This document shows, piece after piece, positions 24,097 through 38,642 of a DNA stretch of 64,000 nucleotides. The notes beneath the pieces are model-generated. The model did no database searches, was not told the origin of the DNA, and saw only the letters and a list, made by a program, of their open reading frames with translations. Position numbers and translations under genes: made by a program. Origin of the DNA: Candidatus Cloacimonadales bacterium (GTDB taxonomy: Bacteria > Cloacimonadota > Cloacimonadia > Cloacimonadales > JAIOQZ01); NCBI GenBank assembly GCA_963674825.1, contig OY771587.1:1184001-1248000 (forward strand), in the 5' to 3' direction. Each line of letters begins with the position of its first letter. Within the stretch, counting starts at the first letter, position 1.

Positions 24097-24375
24097 AGAT
24101 TCTCCTTCTTAATGATTGTAGCCAGAAAATTCGTACCGACGATTCTGTCTAATGAAATTAATATATACCTCGAACTGCCGGTAAGCATTCATTATTTTAC
24201 CGCAACAAACGATACGAGATTCCACAAAGCGCTTAAGACTGGGCATTCGGCCACTTTCGTATGTTCGTACAGAACCACGCCGAAAAAAGTTGACGACAAA
24301 ATCATCTACAGGTAATTGATAAATGAATTTCATATTTGAATATTCACGAGATAGATATTTTATGGAGGACCCAAG

Positions 24376-24957
24376 ATGAAGATTATACCTCGTTGGGAAT
24401 GGAGAACATTCGGCAATGACCTTCAAGGATACATGAAGGAATTCGAGCAATTCGAAAGCGCTGGCGTCAAGGCAAGCGAAGAGACCTATATCCTCTCACG
24501 GAAGAGTGACGACAACATCAAAATCCGCTTCGAGAAAGTCGATATGAAGACCATGCTCCGGCGCAGCCCGGACGGTATCGAACAATGGACGGTGCTTGGA
24601 AAGAACGGTTTCCCGGTAGACATCAACCAACTCGCGCTTATCTTCAAAGCATTCGGCTTCCCGATTCCCTGGCTCGATAAAGACGAATACGAATACAACG
24701 AATTCATGAGCGGAATCGTCGGGAACCTGCCCGACCTGACCACGGTGGAAGTCACCAAAACACGCAATATTTTCATTATCGACAAGGTGATCTGCGAATT
24801 CGCGGAAGTTACGTTTAACCAGCAGCCCATCCAGACGATCGCCTTCGAACACGAGGACATCGAGCTGGTTCGCAAGCTGGCCGAACGCTTCAAGAAACCC
24901 GGGATGCAGAACATCAACTACATCCAGGCAATGAAAAAAGCGGCAGGAATGATCTGA
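24376..24957 (+). CDS. CYTH/triphosphate-tunnel-like hypothetical protein
   Basis: GGAGG RBS. Motif order mirrors CYTH: 'RWEWR', 'EETY', 'KIR', 'K.R..F', 'IAFE', 'NY'. Confidence 0.6.
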   Translation: MKIIPRWEWRTFGNDLQGYMKEFEQFESAGVKASEETYILSRKSDDNIKIRFEKVDMKTMLRRSPDGIEQWTVLGKNGFPVDINQLALIFKAFGFPIPWLDKDEYEYNEFMSGIVGNLPDLTTVEVTKTRNIFIIDKVICEFAEVTFNQQPIQTIAFEHEDIELVRKLAERFKKPGMQNINYIQAMKKAAGMI

Positions 24958-24980
24958 TCGCACATGATAGGGGGAGAGTC

Positions 24981-25895
24981 ATGAAACGCATCGCAATACT
25001 GGACATCGGAACTAATTCCATCAAATTCCACGCAGCCGAAAAGACAGACCAGGGCGTCAACGTCCTGCACGATACCAACAACATCTCACGCCTCGGAGAC
25101 GGCATGACCCGCACCGGTATGCTCTCCGACGAAGCCATGGATCGCAACATCGAAGCGCTGCGCGAGTTCATGCAGCTCGCCAAAGACAAATACGATATCG
25201 ATAACTTCACCGCCGTAGGCACCATGTGCCTGCGTACCGCGAAAAACGCTCGAGATTTCACCGAACGCGCACGCAACGAACTCGGGCTGATTATCAATGT
25301 CTTGCCGGGCGAAGAAGAAGCGCGGCTTTCATATCTGGCGGTTGTATCGGGCGTTGGCGTCGGCAATGAAGATGTTCTCATCATCGATACCGGCGGCGGC
25401 AGCACCGAATTCATCTTTGGTCACGGCGACGACATCAAGAAGCGATTCAGCCTTGATATCGGCGCGGTGCTGATCACCGAAAACATCCTGATATCCGACC
25501 CGGTCGCAGCCGACGAGCTGCTACGCGCCAGAACCTACATCGAGAGCTTTTTCGACAAGAACGAGGTTAAGGGAAACATCACCCGTCTGGTGGGCATCGG
25601 AGGAACAGTGACAAGCCTTTGCGCAGTGATGCACAAGATGGAGAAGTTCAATCCTGACATCGTGCAGGGGAGCGTCATCAGCCTGAAAGAGGTGCAACAG
25701 CAGATCGAGAGCTACACCTCTAAGACGATCGAACAACGCAAGACCATCACTGGGCTGCAACCCAAGCGCGCGGATGTGATCCTCGCTGGCGCATTGATCC
25801 TCGAAGCTATCATGAAACGATTCAACGTTGAAGGCCTGGTGGTGAGCGATCGGGGCCTGCGCCACGGACTGACCTACGAAAAACTTGGAGGATAG
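24981..25895 (+). CDS. Ppx/GppA-family phosphatase (short form, no HD domain)
   Basis: 'ILDIGTNSIK', 'RLGDG', 'LRTAKN', 'GEEEARLSY', 'DTGGGSTE', 'GIGGT', 'RADVILAG', 'SDRGLRHG'. Confidence 0.92.
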   Translation: MKRIAILDIGTNSIKFHAAEKTDQGVNVLHDTNNISRLGDGMTRTGMLSDEAMDRNIEALREFMQLAKDKYDIDNFTAVGTMCLRTAKNARDFTERARNELGLIINVLPGEEEARLSYLAVVSGVGVGNEDVLIIDTGGGSTEFIFGHGDDIKKRFSLDIGAVLITENILISDPVAADELLRARTYIESFFDKNEVKGNITRLVGIGGTVTSLCAVMHKMEKFNPDIVQGSVISLKEVQQQIESYTSKTIEQRKTITGLQPKRADVILAGALILEAIMKRFNVEGLVVSDRGLRHGLTYEKLGG

Positions 25896-25905
25896 GGCAA
25901 CACAA

Positions 25906-27438
25906 ATGGTAAAAGCGACCAGAATTCTCACCGTCGTCATCCTCGTCGCCATCATGTTTTCCTGCGCCAAATCGAGCGACAACGCCTTTCCGAACAAACC
26001 GATCAAGATCGTCGTCTATACAGCCCCTGGCGGATTGATCGACATTACGGCACGAAAGTTCACTGATGTTGCCGCCAAATACACAGACGCCACCTTTGTG
26101 GTGGAAAATCGCCCCGGTGCCGGCGGCGTTGTGGGTATGCAGAGCGTTCTGCAAGCGCCTGCCGACGGCTACACCATTTTCGCGGGAACCAAATCCAATA
26201 TATCGTTCCTTGTCGGCGCAGACGCAGCCGTGAATTCAGATGATCTCAACTGGTTTGCCATGCTCATGGCCGATCCCGAATGCGTGATTACCAACAACAA
26301 GGCCGATATCAATACCTGGGAAGATATCGTCGAGGACGCCAAATCGCGTCCCGGCGAACAGATATGGCTCGGTCCCGATACCGGTGGACTCGATCACATC
26401 ATGGCGATGAAGCTCTGGGAACGCAGCGGCATTCAGTGCAAATGGATCCCCTTCAAGAGCGGCGGCGCCGCCAAGACAGCATTGCTGGGCGGACAGGGAG
26501 TTTGCTACGTGGGCAATCCCCGCGATATCGGTGGCAATCCAGACCTGAAAATCGCAGCGATCTCCGCAGAGAAACGGCTTCCACAATTCCCGGACGCTCC
26601 CACCTTCACCGAACTTGGTCTTCCCCGGCTCGAGCACGAGATTATGTGGCGCGGATTCGCTGTAAAAAAAGAAACACCCAAGAAAGCGCTGGCGTGGTTC
26701 TCGGATCTGATTGATGACGTAACGCAAGATCCGGACTGGCGCGGATTCTGGGAAAAGGGTGGTATCGAAGTCGTCCATTATGGCCCAGAGCGATTCCAGA
26801 AAATCGTGGAGCTCGACCGCATGGAATTCCACCACTATCTTTCCAGCCTTGGGCTGATCGAACCAGAACAGCGCCCCATGGACGGTCCCGGACAGCGTGG
26901 GCTCAACATGGAACTAATGACGTTCGGCATCCTCATGGTGCAGATCCTGCTGTTCTTCATCGCGGGAATCCGGCTTAAAAAAAGGGTGTTTAACTACACC
27001 GGCAGGATCCTCTTCCCCATCTTTTTCATCAGCCTGTCGCTGTTCTTCTTGATGCTCTCAACGCGCTTTTCAAGTGGCGAAAGCTACGGCCCGGCGGTGG
27101 TTCCGAGGTTATGGTCCATCTTCCTCGCTCTCTTCAGTGTAATCCTCTATATCAAGGTGCTCGCAGGCAAGGAAGAGCCCGACCCCAAGCCCGGAAGAAT
27201 GGACATCGTTTTCCGATTCATCGTGCTCCTGGCGCTCTATATTCCTGCGATTAACTACATCGGCTATATGATCTCAACAATCATCTTCCTTCCGCTGGCA
27301 ATGCTACTTCTTGGATACCGTAAAACCATCGCGATCGTTCTGATCACCATACTCTGGGCAGTGGTGTCGTACCTCCTCTTCTTCAAGCTGTTGCACGTCG
27401 CGCTGCCCGTAGGCATCCTCTGGACTTCGCTCGGGTAG
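25906..27438 (+). CDS. Tripartite tricarboxylate transporter substrate-binding protein fused to a TctB-like membrane domain
   Basis: Lipobox 'MFSC'; TctC motifs 'FPNKPIKIVV..APGG..D..AR', 'VVENRPGAGG', 'APADGYT', 'IPFKSGG...ALLGG'; C-terminal TM helices ending 'LFFKLLHVALPVG'. Confidence 0.85.
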   Translation: MVKATRILTVVILVAIMFSCAKSSDNAFPNKPIKIVVYTAPGGLIDITARKFTDVAAKYTDATFVVENRPGAGGVVGMQSVLQAPADGYTIFAGTKSNISFLVGADAAVNSDDLNWFAMLMADPECVITNNKADINTWEDIVEDAKSRPGEQIWLGPDTGGLDHIMAMKLWERSGIQCKWIPFKSGGAAKTALLGGQGVCYVGNPRDIGGNPDLKIAAISAEKRLPQFPDAPTFTELGLPRLEHEIMWRGFAVKKETPKKALAWFSDLIDDVTQDPDWRGFWEKGGIEVVHYGPERFQKIVELDRMEFHHYLSSLGLIEPEQRPMDGPGQRGLNMELMTFGILMVQILLFFIAGIRLKKRVFNYTGRILFPIFFISLSLFFLMLSTRFSSGESYGPAVVPRLWSIFLALFSVILYIKVLAGKEEPDPKPGRMDIVFRFIVLLALYIPAINYIGYMISTIIFLPLAMLLLGYRKTIAIVLITILWAVVSYLLFFKLLHVALPVGILWTSLG

Positions 27439-27444
27439 GTCACG

Positions 27445-28941
27445 ATGGAAATACTGACACATCTGCTTGAAGGATTTGGCTATATAGGCGGTTGGGCTCC
27501 TATGATCGCAATTGTTACAGGCGTAATCTTCGGTATCCTTGCCGGCGCTATGCCTGGGCTCTCTCCATCGATGGGTGTCGCGCTCTTGGTGCCTTTCACC
27601 TACGCACTCGATCCGTCATTGGCCCTTATCCTTCTCATCTCCATCTACATTGCAGCAAATTACGGCGGATCGATCACCGCGGTCACCATCAACGCACCCG
27701 GTACCGCCTCCGCGGTCGTCACCGCGTTCGATGGCTATCCGCTGACGAAAAAAGGCAAACCCGGCGTGGGACTCGGCATCTCGCTGATTTCATCAACAGT
27801 TGGCGGCATCGTCGGCACATTGATCCTGATATTCTTCTCCGTCCCGCTGGCGAAAGTCACCTTGAAGTTTCATCCCGCTGAATACTTCGCGCTGGCCTTT
27901 TTCGGACTTACCACCGTCGCGTCCCTGGGCGGAAAAAACTGGCTCAAAGCCTTCACAGCCGTATTTCTCGGGTTACTTCTTCGCACCATCGGAACTGAGC
28001 AGACCGGCATCAACCGGTTTTCCTTCGGCATTACCGAACTTTTCGATGGTTTCAACCTCATCCCGATCCTGATCGGGCTCTTCGCGCTCAGCGAGGTGTT
28101 CCGGCAGTTCGAGGCACATGAATTCGAAGTGCAGAAGTTTGAAGGCGGCAAATCACACTGGCCTTCCATTCCCGAATACTGGCGCTTGAAATGGACCATT
28201 CTGCGTTCATCAGTGATCGGTACCATTATCGGCATTTTCCCCGGTGCAGGCGCGACCATCGCGTCATTCATCTCCTATGATATCTCCAAGCGCATGAGCA
28301 AGAATCCCGACGAATACGGCAACGGCTCACCGGAAGGCGTCGCGGCAGCCGAGGCATCGAACAGTAGTTCCGTAGGTGGAGCGTTGGTTCCGCTTCTTAC
28401 ACTTGGCATCCCGGGAAGTGCTTCGACGGCAGTGCTCATCGGCGCACTGATGATTCACGATCTCGATCCCGGACCGCGGCTCTTCGAGACAGCGCCGGAA
28501 GTCGTTTACGGACTTTTCGCAAGCCTCCTGGTCGCCAACTTCGTCCTGCTGGCGCTCGGGCTCCTGGGCAGCAAGCTGTGGATCAAGGTAACGCAAGTCC
28601 CACGTGAGGTACTATTCCCCCTCATCTTTGCTGTATCGATCATCGGGGCTTTCGCGGTAAACAACTCCCTTTTCGACGTAGCCTCCTGTGTGGGCTTCGG
28701 AATTCTGGGCTGGCTGATGAGACGCCACGGCTATCCGGTTGCGCCGGTGGTGCTCGGAATCGTGCTGGGACGCATCGCGGAAGAGAACTTCCGAAACGCC
28801 GTCAAAATGGGAGGTTATGAAATTTTCTTTACAAGACCAATCAGTTTAGCAATCTTGAGTGTTGCGGTGATTTCCGTGTTGGTGCCGATGACAAGAGGCT
28901 TCTTCAAGAAGAAATCCACCGCCAATGTTGATACGAGGTAA
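27445..28941 (+). CDS. tctA: Tripartite tricarboxylate transporter large permease TctA
   Basis: 'GAMPGLS', 'YGGSITA..IN.PGT', 'FDGYPL', '[10 protein letters not shown]', '[11 protein letters not shown]', 'PGPRLF'. Confidence 0.92.
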
Positions 28942-28947
28942 GACATT

Positions 28948-29586
28948 ATGCTACTAAGAAGAACCAAACGCATTGAACGTATGATTGACGACTTTCTGGA
29001 CGTGGTAAGCGAAGGAGGTATTCTCTTCAGTAAAGCCATCCGCTTTTACGTCGAGGAAAACACCGAAGAATTCGATGCTCGCAGATTGAAAGTATCGGAA
29101 CTGGAGAGCACCGCTGACCAGCTTCGCCGTGATATCGAGATGGAGCTCTATGCCCATACGCTGATCCCGGAATCGCGCGGTGATGTGCTCGCAATCCTGG
29201 AAAACACTGACGACATTATCGACAATATCAAAGAAACTCTTCTGCAATTTTCGGTGGAACATCCGAAGATCCCACACGAATTTGCCAGCCAGTATATCGA
29301 ACTTGCAATAGCCAGTGGGGAAAGTGTTGATGCGCTCGTTACAGGTGTCCGCTGTTTCTTCCGGGATGTTAAAACCGTGAAGGATCATCTTCATAAAGTG
29401 TATCTGCACGAGAAAGAAGCGGACAAGATCGCCGAACGACTCAAACGGGCAATATTTAATTCGGATATCGAACTTGCCTGGAAGAACCATCTTCGATATT
29501 TCGCGCTGCATGTTGAACATGTATCCGATTACGCCGAAACGATGGCGGATCGGCTTTCAATTTATACCATCAAACGACAGGTGTAA
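28948..29586 (+). CDS. DUF47 / PhoU-like phosphate transport regulator
   Basis: Helical repeat 'ELESTAD.LRRDI...PESRGD', 'EKEADKI', 'SDYAE..ADRL'; directly upstream of PiT. Confidence 0.88.
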   Translation: MLLRRTKRIERMIDDFLDVVSEGGILFSKAIRFYVEENTEEFDARRLKVSELESTADQLRRDIEMELYAHTLIPESRGDVLAILENTDDIIDNIKETLLQFSVEHPKIPHEFASQYIELAIASGESVDALVTGVRCFFRDVKTVKDHLHKVYLHEKEADKIAERLKRAIFNSDIELAWKNHLRYFALHVEHVSDYAETMADRLSIYTIKRQV

Positions 29587-29589
29587 GCC

Positions 29590-31056
29590 GTGATACTGCT
29601 TATATATCTCTCCAGCGGTCTATTCCTGGCGTGGTCGCTGGGCGCAAACAATGCGGCGAATGTATTCGGTCCGGCAGTATCGACCAAAATGGTCAAGTTC
29701 CGCACAGCGGCAATACTGACCTCAATCTTCGTAATACTCGGAGCAGTCTATGAAGGAGCCGGCGCGTCGCAAACACTGGGTAAACTCGGTTCGGTTAACG
29801 CATTGGGTGGCGCTTTTACCGTAGCGCTGGCCGCTGCGATAACCGTCGCAGGGATGACAAAAATGGGCTTGCCTGTTTCCACATCACAGGCGATCGTGGG
29901 CGGAATCATCGGCTGGAACTTCTTCAGCGGATCACTCACTGACTTCTCCGCGCTATCGAAGATCTTTGGAACTTGGGTTATTTGCCCCATCCTGGCAGCT
30001 ATCTTTTCCTACATCTTTTACAAGCTGTACCTCGTGTTTATTGTCCGTACAAGAATTCACCTATTGCGGCTTGATGCACTTACTCGATTCTTCTATCTGG
30101 CGGTAACGGCATTCGGAGCATACAGCCTTGGCGCAAACAATATCGCCAACGCGATGGGCGTATTTGTACCGGCCTCGCCTTTCCACGACATACAAGTTAT
30201 GTCAGGCTTTACTCTATCTGGGACACAGGTGCTTTTCTTGATCGGAAGTATCGCGATCGGAGTAGGGGTCATCACATATTCACACAACGTTATCCGCACG
30301 GTGGGAAATGATCTTTTCCGCCTCTCTTCGGTTGGTGGATTAATCGTCATACTCGCCGAAGCCTGGGTGCTTTTCATCTTCGGTTCACAGTCACTCCACG
30401 ATTGGATGCTGGCCCATAACCTTCCGGCGTTTCCGCTGGTTCCGGTATCCAGCTCGCAGGCGGTTGTCGGTGGTGTAATCGGTATTGCGATTGCCAAAGG
30501 CGGACGGAATATCCAGTTTCGGGTGTTGGGCAGAATATCCATGGGATGGGTTACAACGCCTATCATCGCCTGTCTTATCACATTCATTCTGCTTTTCTTC
30601 GTGCAGAACGTGTTCGACCAGAAAGTACACAACGAATCGAGCTACGATTTCAGCCGCAATGTTATTACGGAGCTAAGCGAGCATGACATCGATTTCGACA
30701 AGCTCGAACCACTTAAAGGAACCAGTTTCAAAAATGCACGAGAGCTTAATAACTTCCTTTCAGGCGTAGATCAGTACAGCATGGAAGAGAAGGGATTGAT
30801 CCTCGCTTATGGCGCAGTTGATCCCATAGAGGTGACAACTCAAGGTATACGGATAATCCAGAATGATTATCTGAGCAAACAACAGCTTTCAGCCATCGAA
30901 GAGCTCGACGGAACGACGTACAAACACCGGTGGCAATTCGTGCAAGCGCTGTCAGACGCATCGGACGCCTGGCGAACAGATACTGGAAACAAACAGAAAG
31001 ACGATGAGACGCAGGAGCGTCTGAATTATATCATCAATCATTTTCGTATTCAATAA
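29590..31056 (+). CDS. PiT-family inorganic phosphate transporter with a C-terminal soluble extension
   Basis: Duplicated PiT signatures 'GANNAANVFG' and 'GANNIANAMG', 'LPVSTSQA.VG', 'PVSSSQAVVG'. Confidence 0.92.
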   Translation: MILLIYLSSGLFLAWSLGANNAANVFGPAVSTKMVKFRTAAILTSIFVILGAVYEGAGASQTLGKLGSVNALGGAFTVALAAAITVAGMTKMGLPVSTSQAIVGGIIGWNFFSGSLTDFSALSKIFGTWVICPILAAIFSYIFYKLYLVFIVRTRIHLLRLDALTRFFYLAVTAFGAYSLGANNIANAMGVFVPASPFHDIQVMSGFTLSGTQVLFLIGSIAIGVGVITYSHNVIRTVGNDLFRLSSVGGLIVILAEAWVLFIFGSQSLHDWMLAHNLPAFPLVPVSSSQAVVGGVIGIAIAKGGRNIQFRVLGRISMGWVTTPIIACLITFILLFFVQNVFDQKVHNESSYDFSRNVITELSEHDIDFDKLEPLKGTSFKNARELNNFLSGVDQYSMEEKGLILAYGAVDPIEVTTQGIRIIQNDYLSKQQLSAIEELDGTTYKHRWQFVQALSDASDAWRTDTGNKQKDDETQERLNYIINHFRIQ

Positions 31057-31074
31057 AATGAATTGGGGGACTTC

Positions 31075-32331
31075 ATGAATGGAACCTTTGGGAAAATCGG
31101 AGTAGTGACGATTCTGCTGTCGCTCTGCTTCGGAATGCTTTATGCCGATAGAACCAGCGCTAACACCGAGTGGAAAGACGGCATCCTGCAATTCTCATCA
31201 AGCGACGGTATGTTCAAGACACGCTTCGATGTCCGGATGTATCTGGACGGAGCAGTTTATTTCGAGAACAAGAATGAAGAATCAATGAGTGACGGTACCG
31301 ATCTTCGTCGTGTTCGCTTCGCGATGAAAGTAAAGCTCTGGGAAAAATGGCGCGCAGAATGGGATATGGATTTTGCCACCTATACTAAGAAAAGCGACAA
31401 GAAAAACACGGGACCGGAAGTCAAGGATATGTGGCTTGCCTACACGCCCTGGGACAACGCAATGCTCAAAGTTGGCCATTTCAAGCCGCCATTCAGCATG
31501 GAAGAACTAACCAGTTCTGCAAAAACCGTATTCCTCGAACGCGCTTACCCGAATGTATTCACCACCGGTCGCCGTATCGGTGTTGGTATGAGCTTCTGGA
31601 AACCATGGATGCATGTTTCGGCAGGTATGTTCGGCGAAGCAGCCGAAAACCTCGACCAGAAATCGGGTGACGAAGGCTCGGCAATCGCGGCACGTATCGT
31701 TGTCGCGCCCATCAATAACGAAAAATCCCTCGTGCATATCGGCGGTGCCGTCCAGTGGATCACTCCCGATGCAGTGGAAGACGGGCAGCAGCGCGTAATC
31801 GGATTCGACGAACGTCCCGAAACCAGCGTTGCCCGTACAAAATTCCTGGATACAGGTGATATCACAGACGTATCCGGCTATAACACTTTGGGCGGCGAGC
31901 TGGCTGGTAAATTCGGCCCGTTCTACGCTGAAGCCGAATACATGCTGACCACTGTATTGCGCAGAGCAGATAAGGAAGACGCAGAATTCGCAGGCGGTTA
32001 CGCGATGGTTGGCTGGTTCATCACCGGTGAATCCAGGCCCTACGATATCGAAGAAGCCGAGTTTGGCAAACCAGTTCCAAGCAGCGAATACGGTGCTCTG
32101 GAAGTCGCGCTGCGTTACAGCCACCTTGACCTCACCGACGAAGACGCCCTGATCTATGGCGGCATGGCAAACAATTACGCGGTCGCGCTCAACTGGTATC
32201 CCAATAACAACATACGACTCATGATTAATTACATCATGGTCGAAAACTCCGAATACGCTGACGGCGGTGGCGATTATGAGGGTGAAGACAATTTCTCCTT
32301 CGTCACAGCACGAGTGCTGGTCAATTTCTAA
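31075..32331 (+). CDS. OprO/OprP-family phosphate-selective porin
   Basis: Signal peptide; 'DLRRVRF', 'GHFKPPFSMEELTSS...FLER', 'WFITGESRPY', 'GALEVALRYS.LDL', 'LNWYPN.NIR', C-terminal Phe. Confidence 0.9.
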   Translation: MNGTFGKIGVVTILLSLCFGMLYADRTSANTEWKDGILQFSSSDGMFKTRFDVRMYLDGAVYFENKNEESMSDGTDLRRVRFAMKVKLWEKWRAEWDMDFATYTKKSDKKNTGPEVKDMWLAYTPWDNAMLKVGHFKPPFSMEELTSSAKTVFLERAYPNVFTTGRRIGVGMSFWKPWMHVSAGMFGEAAENLDQKSGDEGSAIAARIVVAPINNEKSLVHIGGAVQWITPDAVEDGQQRVIGFDERPETSVARTKFLDTGDITDVSGYNTLGGELAGKFGPFYAEAEYMLTTVLRRADKEDAEFAGGYAMVGWFITGESRPYDIEEAEFGKPVPSSEYGALEVALRYSHLDLTDEDALIYGGMANNYAVALNWYPNNNIRLMINYIMVENSEYADGGGDYEGEDNFSFVTARVLVNF

Positions 32332-32343
32332 GGGAGGTGTGTG

Positions 32344-33330
32344 ATGAAAAGCAAGACAAGCTTCACCGACCGTATGCGTAACCTTTTCCTGAAAAAGCAG
32401 ACTGACGACAAACCAGATCGCAAGAAAGCCAACCGCACAGACAAACGGCTGACCCTTCCTCCGCATCACGTCATTATGCTGATGGTCCCGATCCTGTTCC
32501 TTTTCGCGTGTAGCCTCGACGAAGATCCGATTGGCGGCGGTGGCGGAACATCCGATGTAAATCTGTTGATCAACGAAGTCTCCGCCAAAGGCGAAGACTG
32601 GATCGAGATCTACAATCCGGAATCACAGCTCATCGACATCACCGGCTTCCAATGCTACGACGGTGGTCATCAGGCCGATCCATACATCTTTCCGAACGCA
32701 CAGATCCCCGCAATGGGCTATCTGGTTCTTCATTTCAACGCTGTCGGGCAGCTCTACAACGCTTCGTTTGGCCTTTCTGCCGACGGTGAAAGCATCACCC
32801 TGGCCGATACCAACGGCGACCTGGTCGATCACGTCGATTCTCCCGCTCTGGGTGACGGTGAGTTCTACGCACGCGTTCCAAACGGCGGAAATACGTGGCA
32901 GATTGTTAATACCGCTACGCCCGGAATGCCCAATATTGGCGGAGTTCCCTCGCAAACCCTCTTCCTGAACGAGATTGTCTCGACTGGCGATCCCGACTGG
33001 GTAGAGCTTTACAATGCCACTCCATCCGATATCGATATCAGCGGATACTTTATCTATGATGGCGGCTCGTCGGACAACAAGAGCGTTTTCCCGGCTGGCA
33101 CTGTCGTTCCCGCGAACGGCTTCCTTACCTGGGATTGCGATGATGTGCAGACCAATTTCAAGCTCTCAAGCGGTGGCGAAGATGTCTATCTCGAGAATGA
33201 TCTCGAAGAGGCAATCGACAGCGTCACTTTCCCGGCTATGAACGATGGCGAATCGTACGCTCGCATCCCGGACGGCGGCGATTGGGCGATTACAACAACT
33301 CCGACACCGGGGTCGACGAACGGAGAATAA
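32344..33330 (+). CDS. Lipoprotein with two lamin-tail domains
   Basis: Lipobox 'LFAC'; two repeats 'INEV...DWIEIYN...IDI.G...F.LS..GE...YAR.P.G..W...TPG..N'. Confidence 0.82.
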   Translation: MKSKTSFTDRMRNLFLKKQTDDKPDRKKANRTDKRLTLPPHHVIMLMVPILFLFACSLDEDPIGGGGGTSDVNLLINEVSAKGEDWIEIYNPESQLIDITGFQCYDGGHQADPYIFPNAQIPAMGYLVLHFNAVGQLYNASFGLSADGESITLADTNGDLVDHVDSPALGDGEFYARVPNGGNTWQIVNTATPGMPNIGGVPSQTLFLNEIVSTGDPDWVELYNATPSDIDISGYFIYDGGSSDNKSVFPAGTVVPANGFLTWDCDDVQTNFKLSSGGEDVYLENDLEEAIDSVTFPAMNDGESYARIPDGGDWAITTTPTPGSTNGE

Positions 33331-34044
33331 ATGACCAAAATCTGGATTGCGATCCTGTCACTCTGCTTTTTGTTTGTGATCTTCGGATGCGAAGATAAAA
33401 AATCTGAAGATACTAAACTGGATTTCATTGCCAGTTTTCCACTTAAAATTGTCGAGCCATCCGGTCTTACCTACGATGGCACCAATCTTTGGACTGTCAG
33501 CGATGAAGAAGGTATGATCTATAAAATCGATACCGAAGGTGTGATTCTGGACTCGATCGATACCGAATTCGAGGACCTCGAAGGAATCGCTTGGGATAGC
33601 GAGAACAATCTACTTTGGGTTGCTGATGAACTCGATTCGAGGATATATGTTCTCGACACAGCAGGTACCGTTCGCGATACCATCAATCCCAGCTTCACAG
33701 GATCATATCTCAGTCTGGAGGGTTTATGCTACCGCGACAGTAGCTTCTGTGCGGCGGTCTATTATGCAGTCCAAGAAGCTGAAGCGGATATGGGAGGCGG
33801 AGCTTCCTACCCTCTCGACTTCAAGCCATCCGGGCTGGATTACGCAGAGGACAGAAGTTTCACACTTTATATCGTCAGCGATGAAACCGACTGTCTGTAC
33901 AAATGGAAATCGGGGATTCATCCTGAGATCCTTGAGCAATGGGAACTCAGGTCCGATGATCCTGAGGGTGTCGCTGTCGTGGGCAATAGGGTATATGTGG
34001 TCGACGATTCTGAAAACAGACTCGACATCTATATCCTGAATTAA
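33331..34044 (+). CDS. SdiA-regulated/YjiK-like beta-propeller lipoprotein
   Basis: Lipobox 'IFGC'; repeats 'EPSGLTY...LWTVSDE', 'DLEGIAW', 'LEGL', 'PSGL...IVSDE', 'PEGVAV'. Confidence 0.78.
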   Translation: MTKIWIAILSLCFLFVIFGCEDKKSEDTKLDFIASFPLKIVEPSGLTYDGTNLWTVSDEEGMIYKIDTEGVILDSIDTEFEDLEGIAWDSENNLLWVADELDSRIYVLDTAGTVRDTINPSFTGSYLSLEGLCYRDSSFCAAVYYAVQEAEADMGGGASYPLDFKPSGLDYAEDRSFTLYIVSDETDCLYKWKSGIHPEILEQWELRSDDPEGVAVVGNRVYVVDDSENRLDIYILN

Positions 34045-34084
34045 CATTCTCAACGTAAGTAATGAATAAAACCTGGAGGTTACC

Positions 34085-34930
34085 ATGAAAAAGATATTGA
34101 TCAGTGCTTTTCTTCTGACCGCGCTTTGCGGACTCTTTGCACAGAGCCTCTTCATCAACGAGGTGATGGCTAAAAACGAAACGACTATTGCCGATCCCCA
34201 AGGTGATTTCTGCGATTGGGTGGAGATCTACAACGGTGGCGATTCCGACATCGATATGGGCGGTCTCTACTTCGCAGACGACCATTATGACGGTACACTC
34301 GGCAGCGCTTACATGATCCCGACCACCAATTCGGAAGCGACAACCGTCCCCGCCGGTGGCTATCTATTGTTCTGGTTTGACGAAGATACCGCGGACGGAG
34401 AAACACACATCAACACCAAACTCGGCGGCGATAGTGACGCGGTTTACCTGCTGAACGCCGACAACGAAGTCATCGACAGCTTTGAATACGAATACGATGC
34501 CGAAACTGGACTTGACGTGGACGACGTTTCGATCGGACGCGTGCCCGACGGAACCAACGGATGGTCTTTCTTCGGATCAGACTACATGTACATGCCGAAT
34601 CCCGGTACGACCAACAACCTGATTGCGAACAACGAGCAATCCGTTCCTGATATCGCGGCCATCAGCATGACAAACTTCCCGAATCCGTTCAATCCGGAAA
34701 CGACTGTCAGCTTTAACGTACCGGAAGAGATGAACGCATCCGTGACCGTTTACAACATCCGCGGCCAGAAAATCGCAACCCTCTTCAACGGCAGAGCCGA
34801 AGCCGGTGCCAACAGCGTTGTATGGAACGGCACCGACGAATCCGGCAAGAAAGTTTCCAGCGGCATCTATTTCTATAAGCTTACTGCCGGAAATCAAACC
34901 CAGCTCAAAAAGATGGTGATGGTTAAGTGA
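34085..34930 (+). CDS. Secreted lamin-tail-domain protein with C-terminal FlgD-Ig/T9SS-like domain
   Basis: Signal peptide; 'INEVMAKN...D..G...DWVEIYN'; C-terminal 'NFPNPFNPETTVSF...SSGIYFYKL...KKMVMVK'. Confidence 0.85.
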   Translation: MKKILISAFLLTALCGLFAQSLFINEVMAKNETTIADPQGDFCDWVEIYNGGDSDIDMGGLYFADDHYDGTLGSAYMIPTTNSEATTVPAGGYLLFWFDEDTADGETHINTKLGGDSDAVYLLNADNEVIDSFEYEYDAETGLDVDDVSIGRVPDGTNGWSFFGSDYMYMPNPGTTNNLIANNEQSVPDIAAISMTNFPNPFNPETTVSFNVPEEMNASVTVYNIRGQKIATLFNGRAEAGANSVVWNGTDESGKKVSSGIYFYKLTAGNQTQLKKMVMVK

Positions 34931-34977
34931 CCCTCACACAGCCTCTCCCATTAATGGGCGAAGGTGTAGAGATAATG

Positions 34978-35006
34978 AAAGGCAGGTCGTTTGTACCTGC
35001 CTTTTT
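34978..35006 (+). terminator. Intrinsic terminator ending the phosphate-related locus
   Basis: AAAGGCAGGT...ACCTGCCTTTTT. Confidence 0.75.
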
Positions 35007-35042
35007 CTATGGAAATTTGATGGGGAACCCTCTCTCTCCAAT

Positions 35043-38000
35043 CTACGAGCTTTCGATCTTCTGCAAGAGCTCCTTACCTTTCTCCGTGAATTCGGCGTTG
35101 TTGAGCTCTTCTGCCTTCGTAAGGCCTTCTCGCGCCAGTTCCGCCGCCTCGGCCTTCTTTCCGTCCTCAAACAGCAAATCCGCCTTTTCGATCAGGAATT
35201 CAGGAAGTGAATGGCTCATGCCGGATTGCTCGATCAGCGTCAATCCCAGCTCGAAATGCCGGTACGCTTCCTCGAAATCACCTGCCAGCTTGCAAGCTCG
35301 CGCCATGTTCGCACGGATGTTGATCAGCGATTCGATGTCGTTGATCTCCTTGGCATAAGCAAGGGCATCCTGGTGATGCTCCAGCGCTTGCGTGTAGTCG
35401 CCGACGCATTGCAGTACGTAGCCGATGTTGTCGAGCATACGGATCATCTCACTCTTGAGCCCGAGTTCGCGGTTGATTGTAAGCGCGTTTCGGTAGTATT
35501 CAAGCGCTTCTGGATACTTCTGTTGACCGTCGAGCACCCAACCCAGATTGCCCATCGTGCGTGAAATCTGGATCTTATCACCCTGTTCCTCTGCAATCTT
35601 GAGCTGCCGCTTGAGGAACTCTGTCGAATTCTCGAAATCGCCAGTATAGCGATAGATCACACCCAGATTACCCAACGCTTCAGCCACACGAAGCGGATCA
35701 CCCATTTTTTCGAAGGCGTTAAGCTCCTCTTCAAAGTAGTGGAATGCATCCTTCTGCTTGCCCTGCCAAAAACTCAGAACGCCCATCTCCAGATAAGTCA
35801 ATCCGAGCATCTTCAGGTCGTTTTCGGACGAGAAAAGCTCTAGCGCTTCTTTCAGAAGCGTTTCGCATTGCTCGTAATTACCGCTGAGCTTGAGGAGGTT
35901 TGCCAGATCGAGGTTCGTTTTGGCGATATCAAGCCTGCTACCCCATTTATGGGCTATTTCCGCCGCTTCTTCCACCGCCTTATTCGCCTCGTCCATGTTA
36001 CCCAAAACCTGGTTGTAATACTTCGCTTCCAGCAAAGCACCCACAAGCGACTGCACGATCTCTGCGCGCGAGTCCGCTGTATCCAGTTCCTGCTTCAAGA
36101 GCTCGATCTGACGGCTACGGTACTGCAATGCTGCGCGATTCTGGTAGTTTCGCTTGGCGTGACTGGATGCCTTTTCGAGGTACTCGATAGCGCGGTCGCG
36201 TATCTCGGCGTTGTCGTAATGATACGCGAGGTCGCTGTAATGGAGTTCGATATCGGTATCGAAAAGTTCGCGAATGGTGTCGGCCGCCAGACGATGCAAT
36301 TCCCGAAGGCGCTGCTTAAGCTGAATGCCGTAAACAACCTCGCGGATGAGGGTGTTGTTGAAGATATAGCGTAGCTTCTGTAGGGGCATCCAGATGTTCT
36401 CGCGCTGGGCTTCGACTACGATTTCATCGAAGCTGTCACGATCGATCGGCTCGGTGATGTTGTGCAACATGGTCGAAAGTATGTTAACCGGAAATTCTCT
36501 GCCCAGTACAGACGCGGTCTGTACCGCTTGCTTGACTTGTTCAGTCAGCCGGTCTATACGCGCGATAATGATCTCGTTGATACGCGATGGAATCTCGATT
36601 TTATCGTTTTTCAGGGTGAAGTCATTGGCAAGAAGATTGTTCTCCTGCAAGTACATGAGAATCTGCTCGATATAGAAAGGATTGCCTTCGCTCTTGTTCC
36701 ATACTAGATTGAAAGTCGCTTCCGGTAGCGACCCAAGCAATTCCGCGATCATCTCCTGTGCCGCTTCGCGACTGAGGTTTTGCAGCCGTAGCCGGATAGT
36801 TGGAACATCTTTGAGCACCAGATCGAACGAACTACCGTCGTCTTGGAATCGGCAGGAAAGAACGATCGCAAAAGGATAGTCTTCCACGTTTCGGGTAAGC
36901 GTAGTCAGCCAGCTGACGGTATCGGTGTCAATCAGATGAGCATCATCGATTACGATCACCCGCGGTTTGTGCAGACTCATGGCCAGTATCAGCGTTTTTA
37001 GTGCGTAAAGTGTGTTCTCGTAACGTCCTCGTGCGTCGAGTTGCTCATAGAGGGAGTTTTCCCAACGCAAGCCCAGCATTCCGCCGATTACGGAGCGAGT
37101 TCGTTCCAACTCGACACGTAGATCAGCGTCCAGAACCTGTTTTTGAAATTCATCGAAACGCTGGTCGAATGTAGCTCTGTTTTCGTCGAGCGTACGGCTC
37201 TCTTCCTGCTCGAAACTGAGTTCGAGGAAATGCAGGATGGGGTTGAAGCTCTTGCGCAGGATGCCATCGCAAGGCATCTCGATCCAGCGAATTTCATCAG
37301 ACTCGGCCATCATCTCGTGAATGAGCCTGCTCTTTCCGGTTCCGGCCGAGCCGTCGAGATAGATCAGGCCGCCAAAACGCTTTTCGTTCAACGGTGATAG
37401 GGTTTCAGTCAGCTTCTGGAGTTCATCCGCACGATCTATAAGCTTCCCGCTGAACTTGTTCTGCTGGCTGCTTTTCAAGCGTTGTTCCAGCAGGTAGACC
37501 GGTATGGGTTCCGGAAATCCCTTGAATACTTGATCGCTCTTGAATTCGATTTTATACTGCTGTGCCAGATTCGCGTTGAAGAAGCGATCAACATAGATCT
37601 GGTGCCAGTCCGCACTCATGGCGAAGCGTGCTGAGAGGTTCACAACCATGCCAAGCGCAGTATATTCGCTACGTGTATCGCTGCCCACGAAGCCGGTAAA
37701 CGCCGTTCCGAAGGTCATGCCGACCCGTAGATTGATATCGGGAAGCTGCCGTAACGCCAGTGCGTAGTCGCATGCACGGGCAAACATCTTTTCACGGCCA
37801 ACGGGTGCACCGAAGATGACCAGGGCGATTCCGCCCTTGTCGCCGAAATCGAATTTATTGAAGTACCCGCCATAGCGCACGGCAAGCCGTACGATCTCAG
37901 GCAGTGCAGCATCGAGGTTACCGCCTTCATCGAACGATATAAACATCGAGATGACGTCGCGGAACTCACCCGGCGTCTTCAGATTGATAACAGCTTCCGG

Positions 38001-38642
38001 AATGAAGCGCTCAATCCCGGTATCGCAAGGCTTGATATCCACCGGTCGCGATGAGATCATCCAGTTTTCCGGCTGCACGTGATAGTAGCCATCACGATAC
38101 TCCTTTCTGCATGAAATGCCTGGCTCGAAATCGATAACAGCACAGCCCTTTTCGCAATGCTTCTCACATCTGGCAGCGCCATCAATCGCATCGCCCCGGA
38201 AGTAGTAGGCGTTTTGCTCATCGCAGCGAATGATCTTCCATTCCACTTCCCCACGTGAAACACCGATCTTCACCGCGAGCTGGAAATCGCCGAAACGGGT
38301 AGTCTGGAAGCCAATAGATTCGAAGCTTGTGAGGATATCCATTGCCGCCCGTAGGGGCATGTTGTTATCGGTATGTTCTGCGGGAAACACAGCGGTGAAG
38401 GCATCTCCTGCAAAGCATGAAACGAAGCCATGATTACGATAAATGGAGTCGATTGCCGGCGTGAAAACACGGTTGATGATCCCCGTAAGGATTTCTGCGC
38501 CTTCTTTGCCGTTTTTCATTAATGTATGGGTCATGAGCGTGAAACCAGATACGTCAATGAACATGGTTCTGGCCTGTAAATTCCCGGAAGTCCGTTCATT
38601 CGCAGCATGATCGAGTATAGTTCTTGGAATGAGTTGTCGCAT
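35043..38642 (-). CDS. Class III adenylate/guanylate cyclase - STAND ATPase - TPR protein
   Basis: Cyclase motifs 'FIDVSGFT', 'FAGDA'; second cyclase domain 'FGDKG..FGAP', 'VNLSARF'; Walker A 'GSAGTGKS', Walker B 'IVIDDAH', 'GNPFY'; C-terminal TPRs. Confidence 0.88.
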   Translation of the reverse strand: MRQLIPRTILDHAANERTSGNLQARTMFIDVSGFTLMTHTLMKNGKEGAEILTGIINRVFTPAIDSIYRNHGFVSCFAGDAFTAVFPAEHTDNNMPLRAAMDILTSFESIGFQTTRFGDFQLAVKIGVSRGEVEWKIIRCDEQNAYYFRGDAIDGAARCEKHCEKGCAVIDFEPGISCRKEYRDGYYHVQPENWMISSRPVDIKPCDTGIERFIPEAVINLKTPGEFRDVISMFISFDEGGNLDAALPEIVRLAVRYGGYFNKFDFGDKGGIALVIFGAPVGREKMFARACDYALALRQLPDINLRVGMTFGTAFTGFVGSDTRSEYTALGMVVNLSARFAMSADWHQIYVDRFFNANLAQQYKIEFKSDQVFKGFPEPIPVYLLEQRLKSSQQNKFSGKLIDRADELQKLTETLSPLNEKRFGGLIYLDGSAGTGKSRLIHEMMAESDEIRWIEMPCDGILRKSFNPILHFLELSFEQEESRTLDENRATFDQRFDEFQKQVLDADLRVELERTRSVIGGMLGLRWENSLYEQLDARGRYENTLYALKTLILAMSLHKPRVIVIDDAHLIDTDTVSWLTTLTRNVEDYPFAIVLSCRFQDDGSSFDLVLKDVPTIRLRLQNLSREAAQEMIAELLGSLPEATFNLVWNKSEGNPFYIEQILMYLQENNLLANDFTLKNDKIEIPSRINEIIIARIDRLTEQVKQAVQTASVLGREFPVNILSTMLHNITEPIDRDSFDEIVVEAQRENIWMPLQKLRYIFNNTLIREVVYGIQLKQRLRELHRLAADTIRELFDTDIELHYSDLAYHYDNAEIRDRAIEYLEKASSHAKRNYQNRAALQYRSRQIELLKQELDTADSRAEIVQSLVGALLEAKYYNQVLGNMDEANKAVEEAAEIAHKWGSRLDIAKTNLDLANLLKLSGNYEQCETLLKEALELFSSENDLKMLGLTYLEMGVLSFWQGKQKDAFHYFEEELNAFEKMGDPLRVAEALGNLGVIYRYTGDFENSTEFLKRQLKIAEEQGDKIQISRTMGNLGWVLDGQQKYPEALEYYRNALTINRELGLKSEMIRMLDNIGYVLQCVGDYTQALEHHQDALAYAKEINDIESLINIRANMARACKLAGDFEEAYRHFELGLTLIEQSGMSHSLPEFLIEKADLLFEDGKKAEAAELAREGLTKAEELNNAEFTEKGKELLQKIESS

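Follow-up and report, generated by a model that had tools for sequence, protein, structure and literature searches.

A conserved operon joining a tripartite tricarboxylate transporter to phosphate genes in Cloacimonadales: a candidate route for uptake of short condensed phosphate

The 64,000-nucleotide stretch of a Candidatus Cloacimonadales bacterium genome analysed here (contig OY771587.1, positions 1,184,001 to 1,248,000; the window) contains a ten-gene cluster in which a tripartite tricarboxylate transporter (TTT) stands among genes for phosphate handling. The locus is real, conserved and apparently undescribed, and its sequence makes it a good candidate route for the uptake of pyrophosphate (PPi) or short polyphosphate (polyP). 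Our preferred reading, to which we assign a probability of about 0.55, is that the operon imports a short condensed phosphate (PPi, tripolyphosphate (PPPi) or short polyP), probably as a divalent-metal complex, and hydrolyses it in the cytoplasm. The evidence consists of the gene identities, the triphosphate-tunnel (TTM) fold of the first gene product, a dedicated clade of TctC binding domains, the linkage of that clade to phosphate genes, repeated swaps of components among relatives and the absence of known polyP kinases.

The ligand, the direction of flux and every catalytic step are predicted as follows. The anion would pass the outer membrane through an OprO/OprP-type porin, be captured by the anchored TctC domain and be brought in by TctA and TctB by ion symport. 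In the cytoplasm orthophosphate (Pi) would be released by a short Ppx, whose place is taken in relatives by a NeuTTM-like tripolyphosphatase, and the product of gene 1 would act on or hold the same polyanion beside the hydrolase. The PiT–DUF47 pair (or an Na/Pi symporter) would move orthophosphate. The first-pass annotation had proposed scavenging of polyP or a related phospho-compound, beginning with capture at the cell surface; the linkage to phosphate genes across phyla and the exchange of Ppx for a NeuTTM-like enzyme lend partial support to the scavenging, and the surface step is abandoned below.

The transporter and its linkage to phosphate genes

The transporter consists of a TctC–TctB fusion (25906–27438, + strand) and the large membrane subunit TctA (27445–28941, +; PF01970, E 4e-156). 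PF03401 (E 1.7e-26) and PF07331 (E 1.7e-15) lie in one open reading frame (ORF), which also has a lipobox (MFSC) and, towards its C terminus, six hydrophobic segments. All three families score above their cut-offs and the TTT (TC 2.A.80) set is complete. The TctC fold was matched by Foldseek to TphC, Bug27, BugD/E, MatC and AdpC with TM-scores of 0.79–0.88. TctA is present as a single copy (one match) in the host genome (G000, 99.6% complete).

For the TctC tree, 163 distinct domains were extracted, 8 partial or duplicate rows were dropped and near-identical sequences were thinned, leaving 102. Every one of the 39 TctCs linked to gene 1 lies in a single clade with 47 members (FastTree support 1.0, stem 0.67). 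The other eight members have no gene 1 in their stretch: four are on cut contigs that still carry CYTH, Ppx or PiT, one adjoins an Na/Pi-like gene, and three (L096, L099 and L349) show no phosphate gene. Among clade TctC ORFs, 61/87 have at least 480 residues and are TctC–TctB fusions. Linkage was compared in equal 1.5 kb windows, and related sequences in the counts are not independent. Of the TctCs found with the transporter queries, a phosphate-handling gene lay within 1.5 kb of 44/49 in the clade versus 0/68 others; without the length filter the counts were 48/58 and 0/74. The TTT thus belongs to a long-stemmed TctC clade of its own that is tied to phosphate genes. An unrelated TTT of a Marinisomatota genome (L294) adjoins sugar-acid aldolase- and kinase-like genes (labelled by eye), as for an ordinary TTT. 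Recurring linkage to ppx, pit and oprO, which the first-pass annotation had named beforehand as its test, was found strongly and across phyla.

Within the phylum this TctA occurs in 28/232 genomes, all of which hold gene 1. Around the TctA copies of 27 other genomes, 28 of 29 stretches carry at least one of gene 1, ppx, pit, DUF47, Na/Pi symporter and porin; the sole stretch without a phosphate gene is a 2.8 kb contig. The gene order in Cloacimonadota is variable, with pit–DUF47 before or after the TTT and an Na/Pi symporter (PF02690) replacing or joining PiT in some loci. A wider scan with TctA gave 44 loci, of which the 23 outside Cloacimonadota were annotated. The same system is carried by 19 of these 23, mostly from Marinisomatota, with a canonical CYTH protein in the place of Ppx in 16 loci. 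The order is gene 1, CYTH (in those 16), TctCB, TctA, Na/Pi and/or PiT, and the 3' part is either porin–lamin-tail–propeller, or an exported protein, a carrier (DASS or GlpT/PgtP-like) and a further probable porin. Upstream, 12 loci (Marinisomatota) have a PhnD-like phosphate/phosphonate-type binding protein, a kinase and a sigma-54 regulator.

When metagenomes were scanned with the gene 1 profile, 548 relatives were confirmed, of which the best 80 were taken together with two plasmid loci; 81 of these 82 loci were scored and were not dereplicated. The second-enzyme slot holds Ppx in 46 and canonical CYTH in 29, never both, with neither in six loci, all of which have less than 3 kb downstream. 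The carrier slot holds TTT in 38, DASS in 18 and both in 2, while PiT or Na/Pi occurs in 28, porin in 21 and lamin-tail domains in 16. In a tree built from 112 distinct gene 1 sequences, Ppx and CYTH switch at least four times and the carrier at least three times. TTT and DASS are two polyanion carrier families filling one slot, and the operon is modular, its slots being filled by unrelated equivalents (Ppx/CYTH, TTT/DASS, PiT/Na–Pi symporter). On a Citrobacter freundii plasmid (L103:8208-13727), LysR, CYTH and gene 1 occur with an SLC13 permease and a conserved protein of unknown function, so that the module in its DASS form is found on a mobilisable plasmid.

TTT binding proteins have a P-F-x-A-G-G-x-x-D pincer loop in which the Phe docks the carbon chain of the ligand, and their known pockets are mostly without positive residues (parts of PMC5812351 and PMC8556258). 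Pocket residues were counted in 88 clade TctCs and were mapped by alignment rather than from coordinates. The domain-1 motif keeps G-G-x-x-D, with Pro replaced by Tyr or His in 85/88 and Phe by Thr or Val in 82/88, and the full motif is not found. Citrate-type TctCs depart from the motif too, so that this departure leaves the clade within the TTT family. The citrate-type Phe is Ile, Met or Val in 85/88. Position 72 is Lys or Arg in 60/88, position 77 is Lys in 58/88 (Phe in this genus), and R225, N180 and D/E183 are invariant (88/88); Arg at the R225 column is also found in 31/74 other TctCs.

BctC binds citrate only together with zinc, with F48, I78, Q170 and N107 contacting citrate and D171, Y212, D215, E218 and R263 making metal–water or salt-bridge contacts (preprint 10.64898/2026.07.27.740893, in part). 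Four TctCs of the GGGFD type served to map these residues, BctC itself being outside the alignment; the four were regarded as citrate-type because of their tctD–tctCBA context and residue pattern. The columns of F48, I78, Q170 and N107 hold I/M/V, G, L/N and K or another residue, respectively, and the set of citrate contacts is not kept. The D215 column is Asn in 88/88, and the D171 equivalent is Lys in 18/88, suggestively as if the side chain replaced the cation. On these alignments the pocket would fit a metal-bound polyanion without a carbon backbone.

Gene 1 and the second enzyme

Gene 1 (24376–24957, +), the marker gene of the system, belongs to an unnamed TTM family, labelled here by the motif PRWEWRTF. 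It has no match in the Pfam or NCBIfam libraries, and its fold was assigned from an AlphaFold model (pLDDT 96). Foldseek returned 29 matches at E ≤ 0.001, and the listed ones are all TTM-fold enzymes. The top structural match is human thiamine triphosphatase (Z 12.2, r.m.s.d. 3.5 Å, 171 residues aligned), followed by YgiF (Z 12.1, 4.0 Å, 169 residues); Vtc4 matches more weakly (Z 7.1, 4.5 Å, 158 residues). The model is an eight-stranded triphosphate-tunnel (TTM/CYTH) fold with a basic interior, in agreement with the earlier description of the first gene as CYTH-like. By sequence, nothing significant was found in the PDB with the gene 1 profile, profile–profile comparisons among gene 1, canonical CYTH and the exported lipoprotein described below gave nothing significant, and one gene 1 relative scores merely E 0.034 to Pfam CYTH.

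Residues R6, E8, R10, E36, K49, R51, D56, K58, K76, K128, R130, E141, E158 and N179 are invariant in 43/43 gene 1 sequences; eight are basic (Lys/Arg) and five acidic. The N-terminal ExExK that typifies TTM tripolyphosphatases (part of PMC8233210) is replaced by R6-x-E8-x-R10 in all 43, which departs from the tripolyphosphatase motif. In the C-terminal ExE region only E158 is invariant (residue 156 is A, C, N or S, and 160 varies), and the alignment does not fix which glutamate E158 corresponds to. From these residues, the protein may be a transferase, a polyanion-binding protein or a hydrolase whose metal site has been rebuilt.

The family comprises 1505 clusters (50% identity) at E ≤ 1e-10 in the profile search. 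A word-index search had returned no longer gene 1 homologues; that blank was a limit of sensitivity, since the profile search revealed gene 1–Ppx fusions in 13/25 of the longer members scanned. Degenerate copies with 20–24% identity and an altered first motif were seen at L251:9823-10416, L252:9886-10470, L255:396-1016, L256:1714-2295 and L257:1890-2504; the copy in L255 is still 5' of DUF47–PiT and the other four are without the operon. A DUF498 (Mth938-like) gene lies between gene 1 and the hydrolase at L044:15011-15388, L048:11190-11582, L058:1049-1441 and L108:10646-11044. A Cupriavidus megaplasmid (L104:1-3403) has a gene 1–Ppx fusion about 7 kb from phosphonate-type genes, which we take to resemble phosphoenolpyruvate (PEP) mutase and aminoethylphosphonate aminotransferase; it is probably unrelated.

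Gene 2 (24981–25895, +) encodes a short single-domain Ppx/GppA phosphatase (PF02541, E 7e-63; TIGR03706 248 bits, under its cut-off of 307), the closest solved chains being 2j4r and 1t6c. E113, which we take to be the catalytic glutamate of the EEEA motif, is invariant in 24/24 sequences. Single-domain Ppx enzymes tend to prefer short polyP chains. The canonical CYTH partner of relatives is closest to NE1496/NeuTTM (E 4e-18) and keeps ExExK together with invariant Y29 and K52, which correspond to the Tyr28/Lys52 dyad of NeuTTM, a specific tripolyphosphatase (part of PMC3440374). The swap between Ppx and a NeuTTM-like tripolyphosphatase narrows the substrate towards a PPPi-type condensed phosphate, the simplest thing common to the two families. 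No signal peptide was found on Ppx or gene 1, which requires that their substrate be either produced in the cell or brought in. Relatives also encode an exported protein of about 310 residues (L070:15034-15969 and homologues; in Marinisomatota it is a lipoprotein) that starts with an S-x-E-x-K motif and matches nothing in Pfam. Its nearest language-model cluster is CYTH-like (score 0.95), with PF01928 on 12% of the cluster; as a lead only, it is a possible periplasmic tunnel enzyme of these operons.

PPK1, PPK2 and VTC gave no match in the host genome, and PPK1 was found in 2/232 phylum genomes, neither a TctA holder; this absence leaves no known internal source of polyP. The host genome encodes a membrane pyrophosphatase. 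Other Cloacimonadota have a PPi-dependent Na+ pump and a PPi-dependent phosphofructokinase (part of PMC8542988). A more ambitious form of the preferred reading, which we put forward very tentatively and think improbable, would make the system a dedicated inner-membrane importer of intact condensed phosphate for both energy and phosphorus in anaerobes without known polyP kinases. PPPi would be split to Pi and PPi, PPi would drive the membrane pyrophosphatase, and gene 1 would represent a new enzyme class, either a polyP phosphotransferase or an opener of the trimetaphosphate ring. Cyclic trimetaphosphate is, like citrate, a tri-anion.

Contrary evidence and other readings

Several observations weigh against the import of a condensed phosphate. 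The first ExExK glutamate is required for hydrolysis by AtTTM3 (part of PMC4641920), so that gene 1, which has none, may not be a plain hydrolase. E. coli Ppx, in the part of the literature cited here, handles PPPi poorly, and Ppx/GppA enzymes may instead have pppGpp as their substrate. DASS, the family that stands in for the TTT, is mainly a carboxylate carrier family.

Regulation is a further point. No PHO box stood out upstream, the best site matching 9/14 positions of the E. coli consensus; since pstS-like promoters of the host score no better (8–10/14), the scan is without power in this organism. Pst-like and PhoBR-like genes are found elsewhere in the host genome. In front of the operon, relatives have ArsR-like, LysR or PhnD-like sensor systems. 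With no PHO box in view and these other regulators in relatives, induction by phosphate starvation is unsupported, and the regulators suggest induction by substrate rather than starvation. An ArsR-like gene heads the operon in 17/29 Cloacimonadota stretches, though not in this genus. The TTGACG of the promoter described below recurs upstream in three same-genus loci, and TTGAC precedes the ArsR-like gene in other Cloacimonadota. There (L035, L036, L041, L045, L055, L058 and others) the conserved TTGAC is followed by an imperfect inverted repeat (ATCATATCAG...CATATGA-like), likely the operator of the ArsR-like regulator.

The proposed surface capture of polyphosphate is rejected for want of support, its supposed agents being acidic and dispensable. 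These are an acidic lipoprotein with two lamin-tail (LTD) domains (32341–33330, +; PF00932 twice; lipobox LFAC; net charge −30), an acidic beta-propeller lipoprotein (33331–34044, +; SdiA-regulated 39 bits, E 5e-10; Phytase-like 30 bits, E 7e-7; lipobox IFGC; net charge −31) and a secreted LTD protein with a C-terminal FlgD/type IX secretion (T9SS)-type sorting domain (34085–34930, +; PF00932, PF13860, PF18962 (Por_Secre_tail), TIGR04183; net charge −26). All three are best seen as accessory, LTD proteins being present in only the 16/81 loci counted above; from its family scores the propeller is possibly a periplasmic phosphatase or esterase.

The strongest alternative, in our view nevertheless unlikely, is a storage operon, in which gene 1 would be a Vtc4-like polyP polymerase or phosphotransferase replacing PPK. 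Ppx or CYTH would remobilise the polymer, and the porin, PiT or Na/Pi and TTT or DASS would supply Pi or counter-ions. The genome without PPK1, PPK2 and VTC matches suits such a replacement, and a synthase beside a hydrolase would presumably mirror ppk–ppx operons. In Vtc4, basic residues replace the acidic patch of the TTM hydrolases (part of PMC4641920), and the first glutamate is an invariant Arg in gene 1. The gene 1 model, however, resembles hydrolases (Z about 12) more closely than Vtc4, there is no PF09359 (VTC) match, with E8 kept the acidic patch is not wholly lost, and E158 is kept as well. Long polyP would not be remobilised by a partner specific for PPPi, the existence of a separate binding-protein clade whose pocket is rebuilt goes unexplained, and at least one holder (G233) has PPK1 too.

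Less probable still is an organic phospho-polyanion as the substrate of the TTT (a nucleoside or thiamine triphosphate, a phosphocarboxylate such as PEP or phosphoglycerate, or phytate fragments), which cytoplasmic enzymes would dephosphorylate after import. A PgtP/UhpC/GlpT-like MFS carrier, below cut-offs, is present in 3/23 loci outside Cloacimonadota, thiamine triphosphatase is the top fold match of gene 1, the propeller scores as Phytase-like, and thiamine pyrophosphokinase with an SSF carrier lies upstream in some Marinisomatota loci. TTTs are also described as carrying sulfolactate, a mixed-acid ligand (part of PMC5812351). Set against these are the PPPi specificity described for NeuTTM-like enzymes and a pocket without a hydrophobic platform; genes for the use of an organic moiety do not recur across phyla, and the thiamine genes are confined to those Marinisomatota loci.

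The other contrary points concern citrate. The nearest sister of the TctC clade is a GGG[FW]D group that includes the citrate-type TctC, with a support of only 0.6. Residues aligned with BctC D171, Y212, E218 and R263 are largely kept (D139 in 70/88, Y177 in 75/88, D/E183 and R225 in 88/88). Four clade members (L096, L099, L102 and L349) have no phosphate gene within 1.5 kb, and L349 has downstream, on the opposite strand, what we take to be an aconitase B-like gene. The host genome carries a citD–citE fusion and citF, 490 kb from the operon (L250:7862-14686; G000:C1 about 1,697,900-1,704,700). The first-pass statement that no citrate-utilisation gene is present therefore holds for the locus and not for the genome. 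These genes are flanked by two saccharopine dehydrogenase-like genes (by eye) and a (homo)isocitrate dehydrogenase-like gene, and they may encode a citrate-lyase-like enzyme of lysine or homocitrate metabolism; no carrier was seen within 20 kb of them. CitF occurs in 76/232 phylum genomes, namely 20/28 TctA holders and 56 genomes without this TctA. It is missing from 8/28 TctA holders, four of which are 97–99% complete, and is present in 2/4 further holders outside the phylum. By this distribution the TTT does not track citrate lyase. Reference comparisons and reading of ORF starts found no citrate lyase gene in clade loci; linkage to citrate lyase, which had been named as grounds for giving up the phosphate interpretation, was accordingly rejected, the genome-level co-occurrence being not tight. 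That the TTT still imports citrate or a citrate–metal complex (for Mg, Mn or Zn supply, or as carbon for citrate lyase) and merely travels with a phosphate operon is encouraged by the sister group, the retained metal–water residues, the two carboxylate carrier families in one slot and a host whose only TTT this is and whose citD–E/citF lack a nearby carrier, and we judge it the least probable of the three, given the holders without CitF and the CitF genomes without TctA, the loss of the F48, I78, Q170 and N107 contacts and clade loci without a recurrent citrate gene.

Locus layout, novelty and related systems

The ten ORFs are all on the + strand and span 24376 to 34930. Downstream of TctA follow a DUF47 (PhoU-like) PiT partner (28948–29586, +; PF01865, E 8e-24), a PiT-family phosphate transporter (29590–31056, +; PF01384 (PHO4), E 1.5e-53) and an OprO/OprP-type outer-membrane porin (31075–32331, +; PF07396 (Porin_O_P), E 7e-63). 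The porin matches 2o4v (E 8e-20) and 4rjw (E 3e-19) almost equally, so that OprO and OprP are not distinguishable; within Cloacimonadota, each of the 25 genomes that match OprO/P strongly has TctA as well. The first-pass list of ten co-oriented genes and their families agrees with the ORFs, the Pfam matches (nine genes) and the fold of gene 1. The gaps are, from 5' to 3', 23, 10, 6, 6, 3, 18, 12, 0 and 40 nt, a spacing that suggests co-transcription of all ten genes. G+C is 0.518 in the operon and 0.502 in the window. A likely sigma-70-type promoter (TTGACG, 17 nt, TAATTG; 24290–24318, +), placed outside the automated site list, precedes gene 1. At the 3' end, the terminator described earlier is present as an intrinsic terminator-like hairpin with a T-run (34978–35010, +; −18.1 kcal/mol for a 50 nt stretch), its G+C hairpin at 34978–35004 being followed by T residues on the + strand. 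The site scan had placed the hairpin on the − strand, so the terminator is probably bidirectional and may also serve a convergent gene for a 1199-residue adenylate/guanylate cyclase–AAA–TPR protein (35043–38642, −), of which no operon-adjacent copy was seen in relatives. Far from the window, a span of about 25 kb in the host genome holds a second, longer Ppx-like gene (682 residues), an Na/Pi symporter and phosphonate ABC transporter-like genes (labelled by eye) at G000:C1:3566372-3568417, 3584764-3586491 and 3588278-3589938.

In the open-access literature, no paper was found that joins a TTT to polyphosphate or describes this TTM family, and the Ace Lake Cloacimonadota paper contains neither 'tricarboxylate' nor 'polyphosphate' in its text or five supplements. 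The CYTH survey (PMC8233210, in part) covers PF01928, outside which the gene 1 family falls, the PPK3 paper (PMC12995831, in part) concerns an unrelated fold, and a 2026 paper on an archaeon growing on polyphosphate (PMC13318637, in part) states that microbial polyphosphate import is unknown. All parts except gene 1 come from known families; what appears new is the modular operon, the unnamed family of TTM proteins and the class of substrate that the TTT probably carries. As the binding domain is small and soluble and the two enzymes are small, the locus makes the question of import directly testable. If condensed phosphate is indeed the substrate, a large unnamed TTM family would gain a function, a likely 'citrate transporter' annotation would be corrected in Cloacimonadota, Marinisomatota and other groups, and PPi from this route could conserve energy via the membrane pyrophosphatase.

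In Pseudomonas, OprO/OprP occur with Pst under PhoB, and phosphate operons of the pit–DUF47–ppx(–ppk) kind are familiar. The porin family, the PiT–DUF47 pair and Ppx are common to those systems and this locus, which differs in having no PPK and no visible PHO box. Unlike there, intact condensed phosphate would here need an inner-membrane carrier, the hydrolases having no signal peptide.

Gene 1 shares the TTM fold with the tripolyphosphatases NeuTTM (NE1496), YgiF, AtTTM3 and SaTTM, from which it differs in its R-x-E-x-R motif and in falling outside Pfam CYTH. The CYTH partner of relatives is a close NeuTTM homologue with both ExExK and the Tyr/Lys dyad; the cited portions of the literature describe no importer with these enzymes. 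With Vtc4, gene 1 has in common the fold and a basic residue at the first acidic-patch glutamate, and it differs in keeping E8 and E158, in matching no VTC family and in having no fused membrane domain.

Among the characterized TTT ligands in the 2018 table of PMC5812351 (cited in part) there is no phosphate. The citrate and citrate–metal systems TctCBA and BctCBA of Salmonella and Bordetella have the TctC, TctB and TctA families in the same C–B–A order and the same binding-protein fold as the clade described here, in which TctC is instead fused to TctB and the neighbours are phosphate genes instead of tctDE. The clade TctCs differ from theirs in a rebuilt pincer motif and lost citrate contacts, and on the alignment mostly keep residues equivalent to D171, Y212, E218 and R263.

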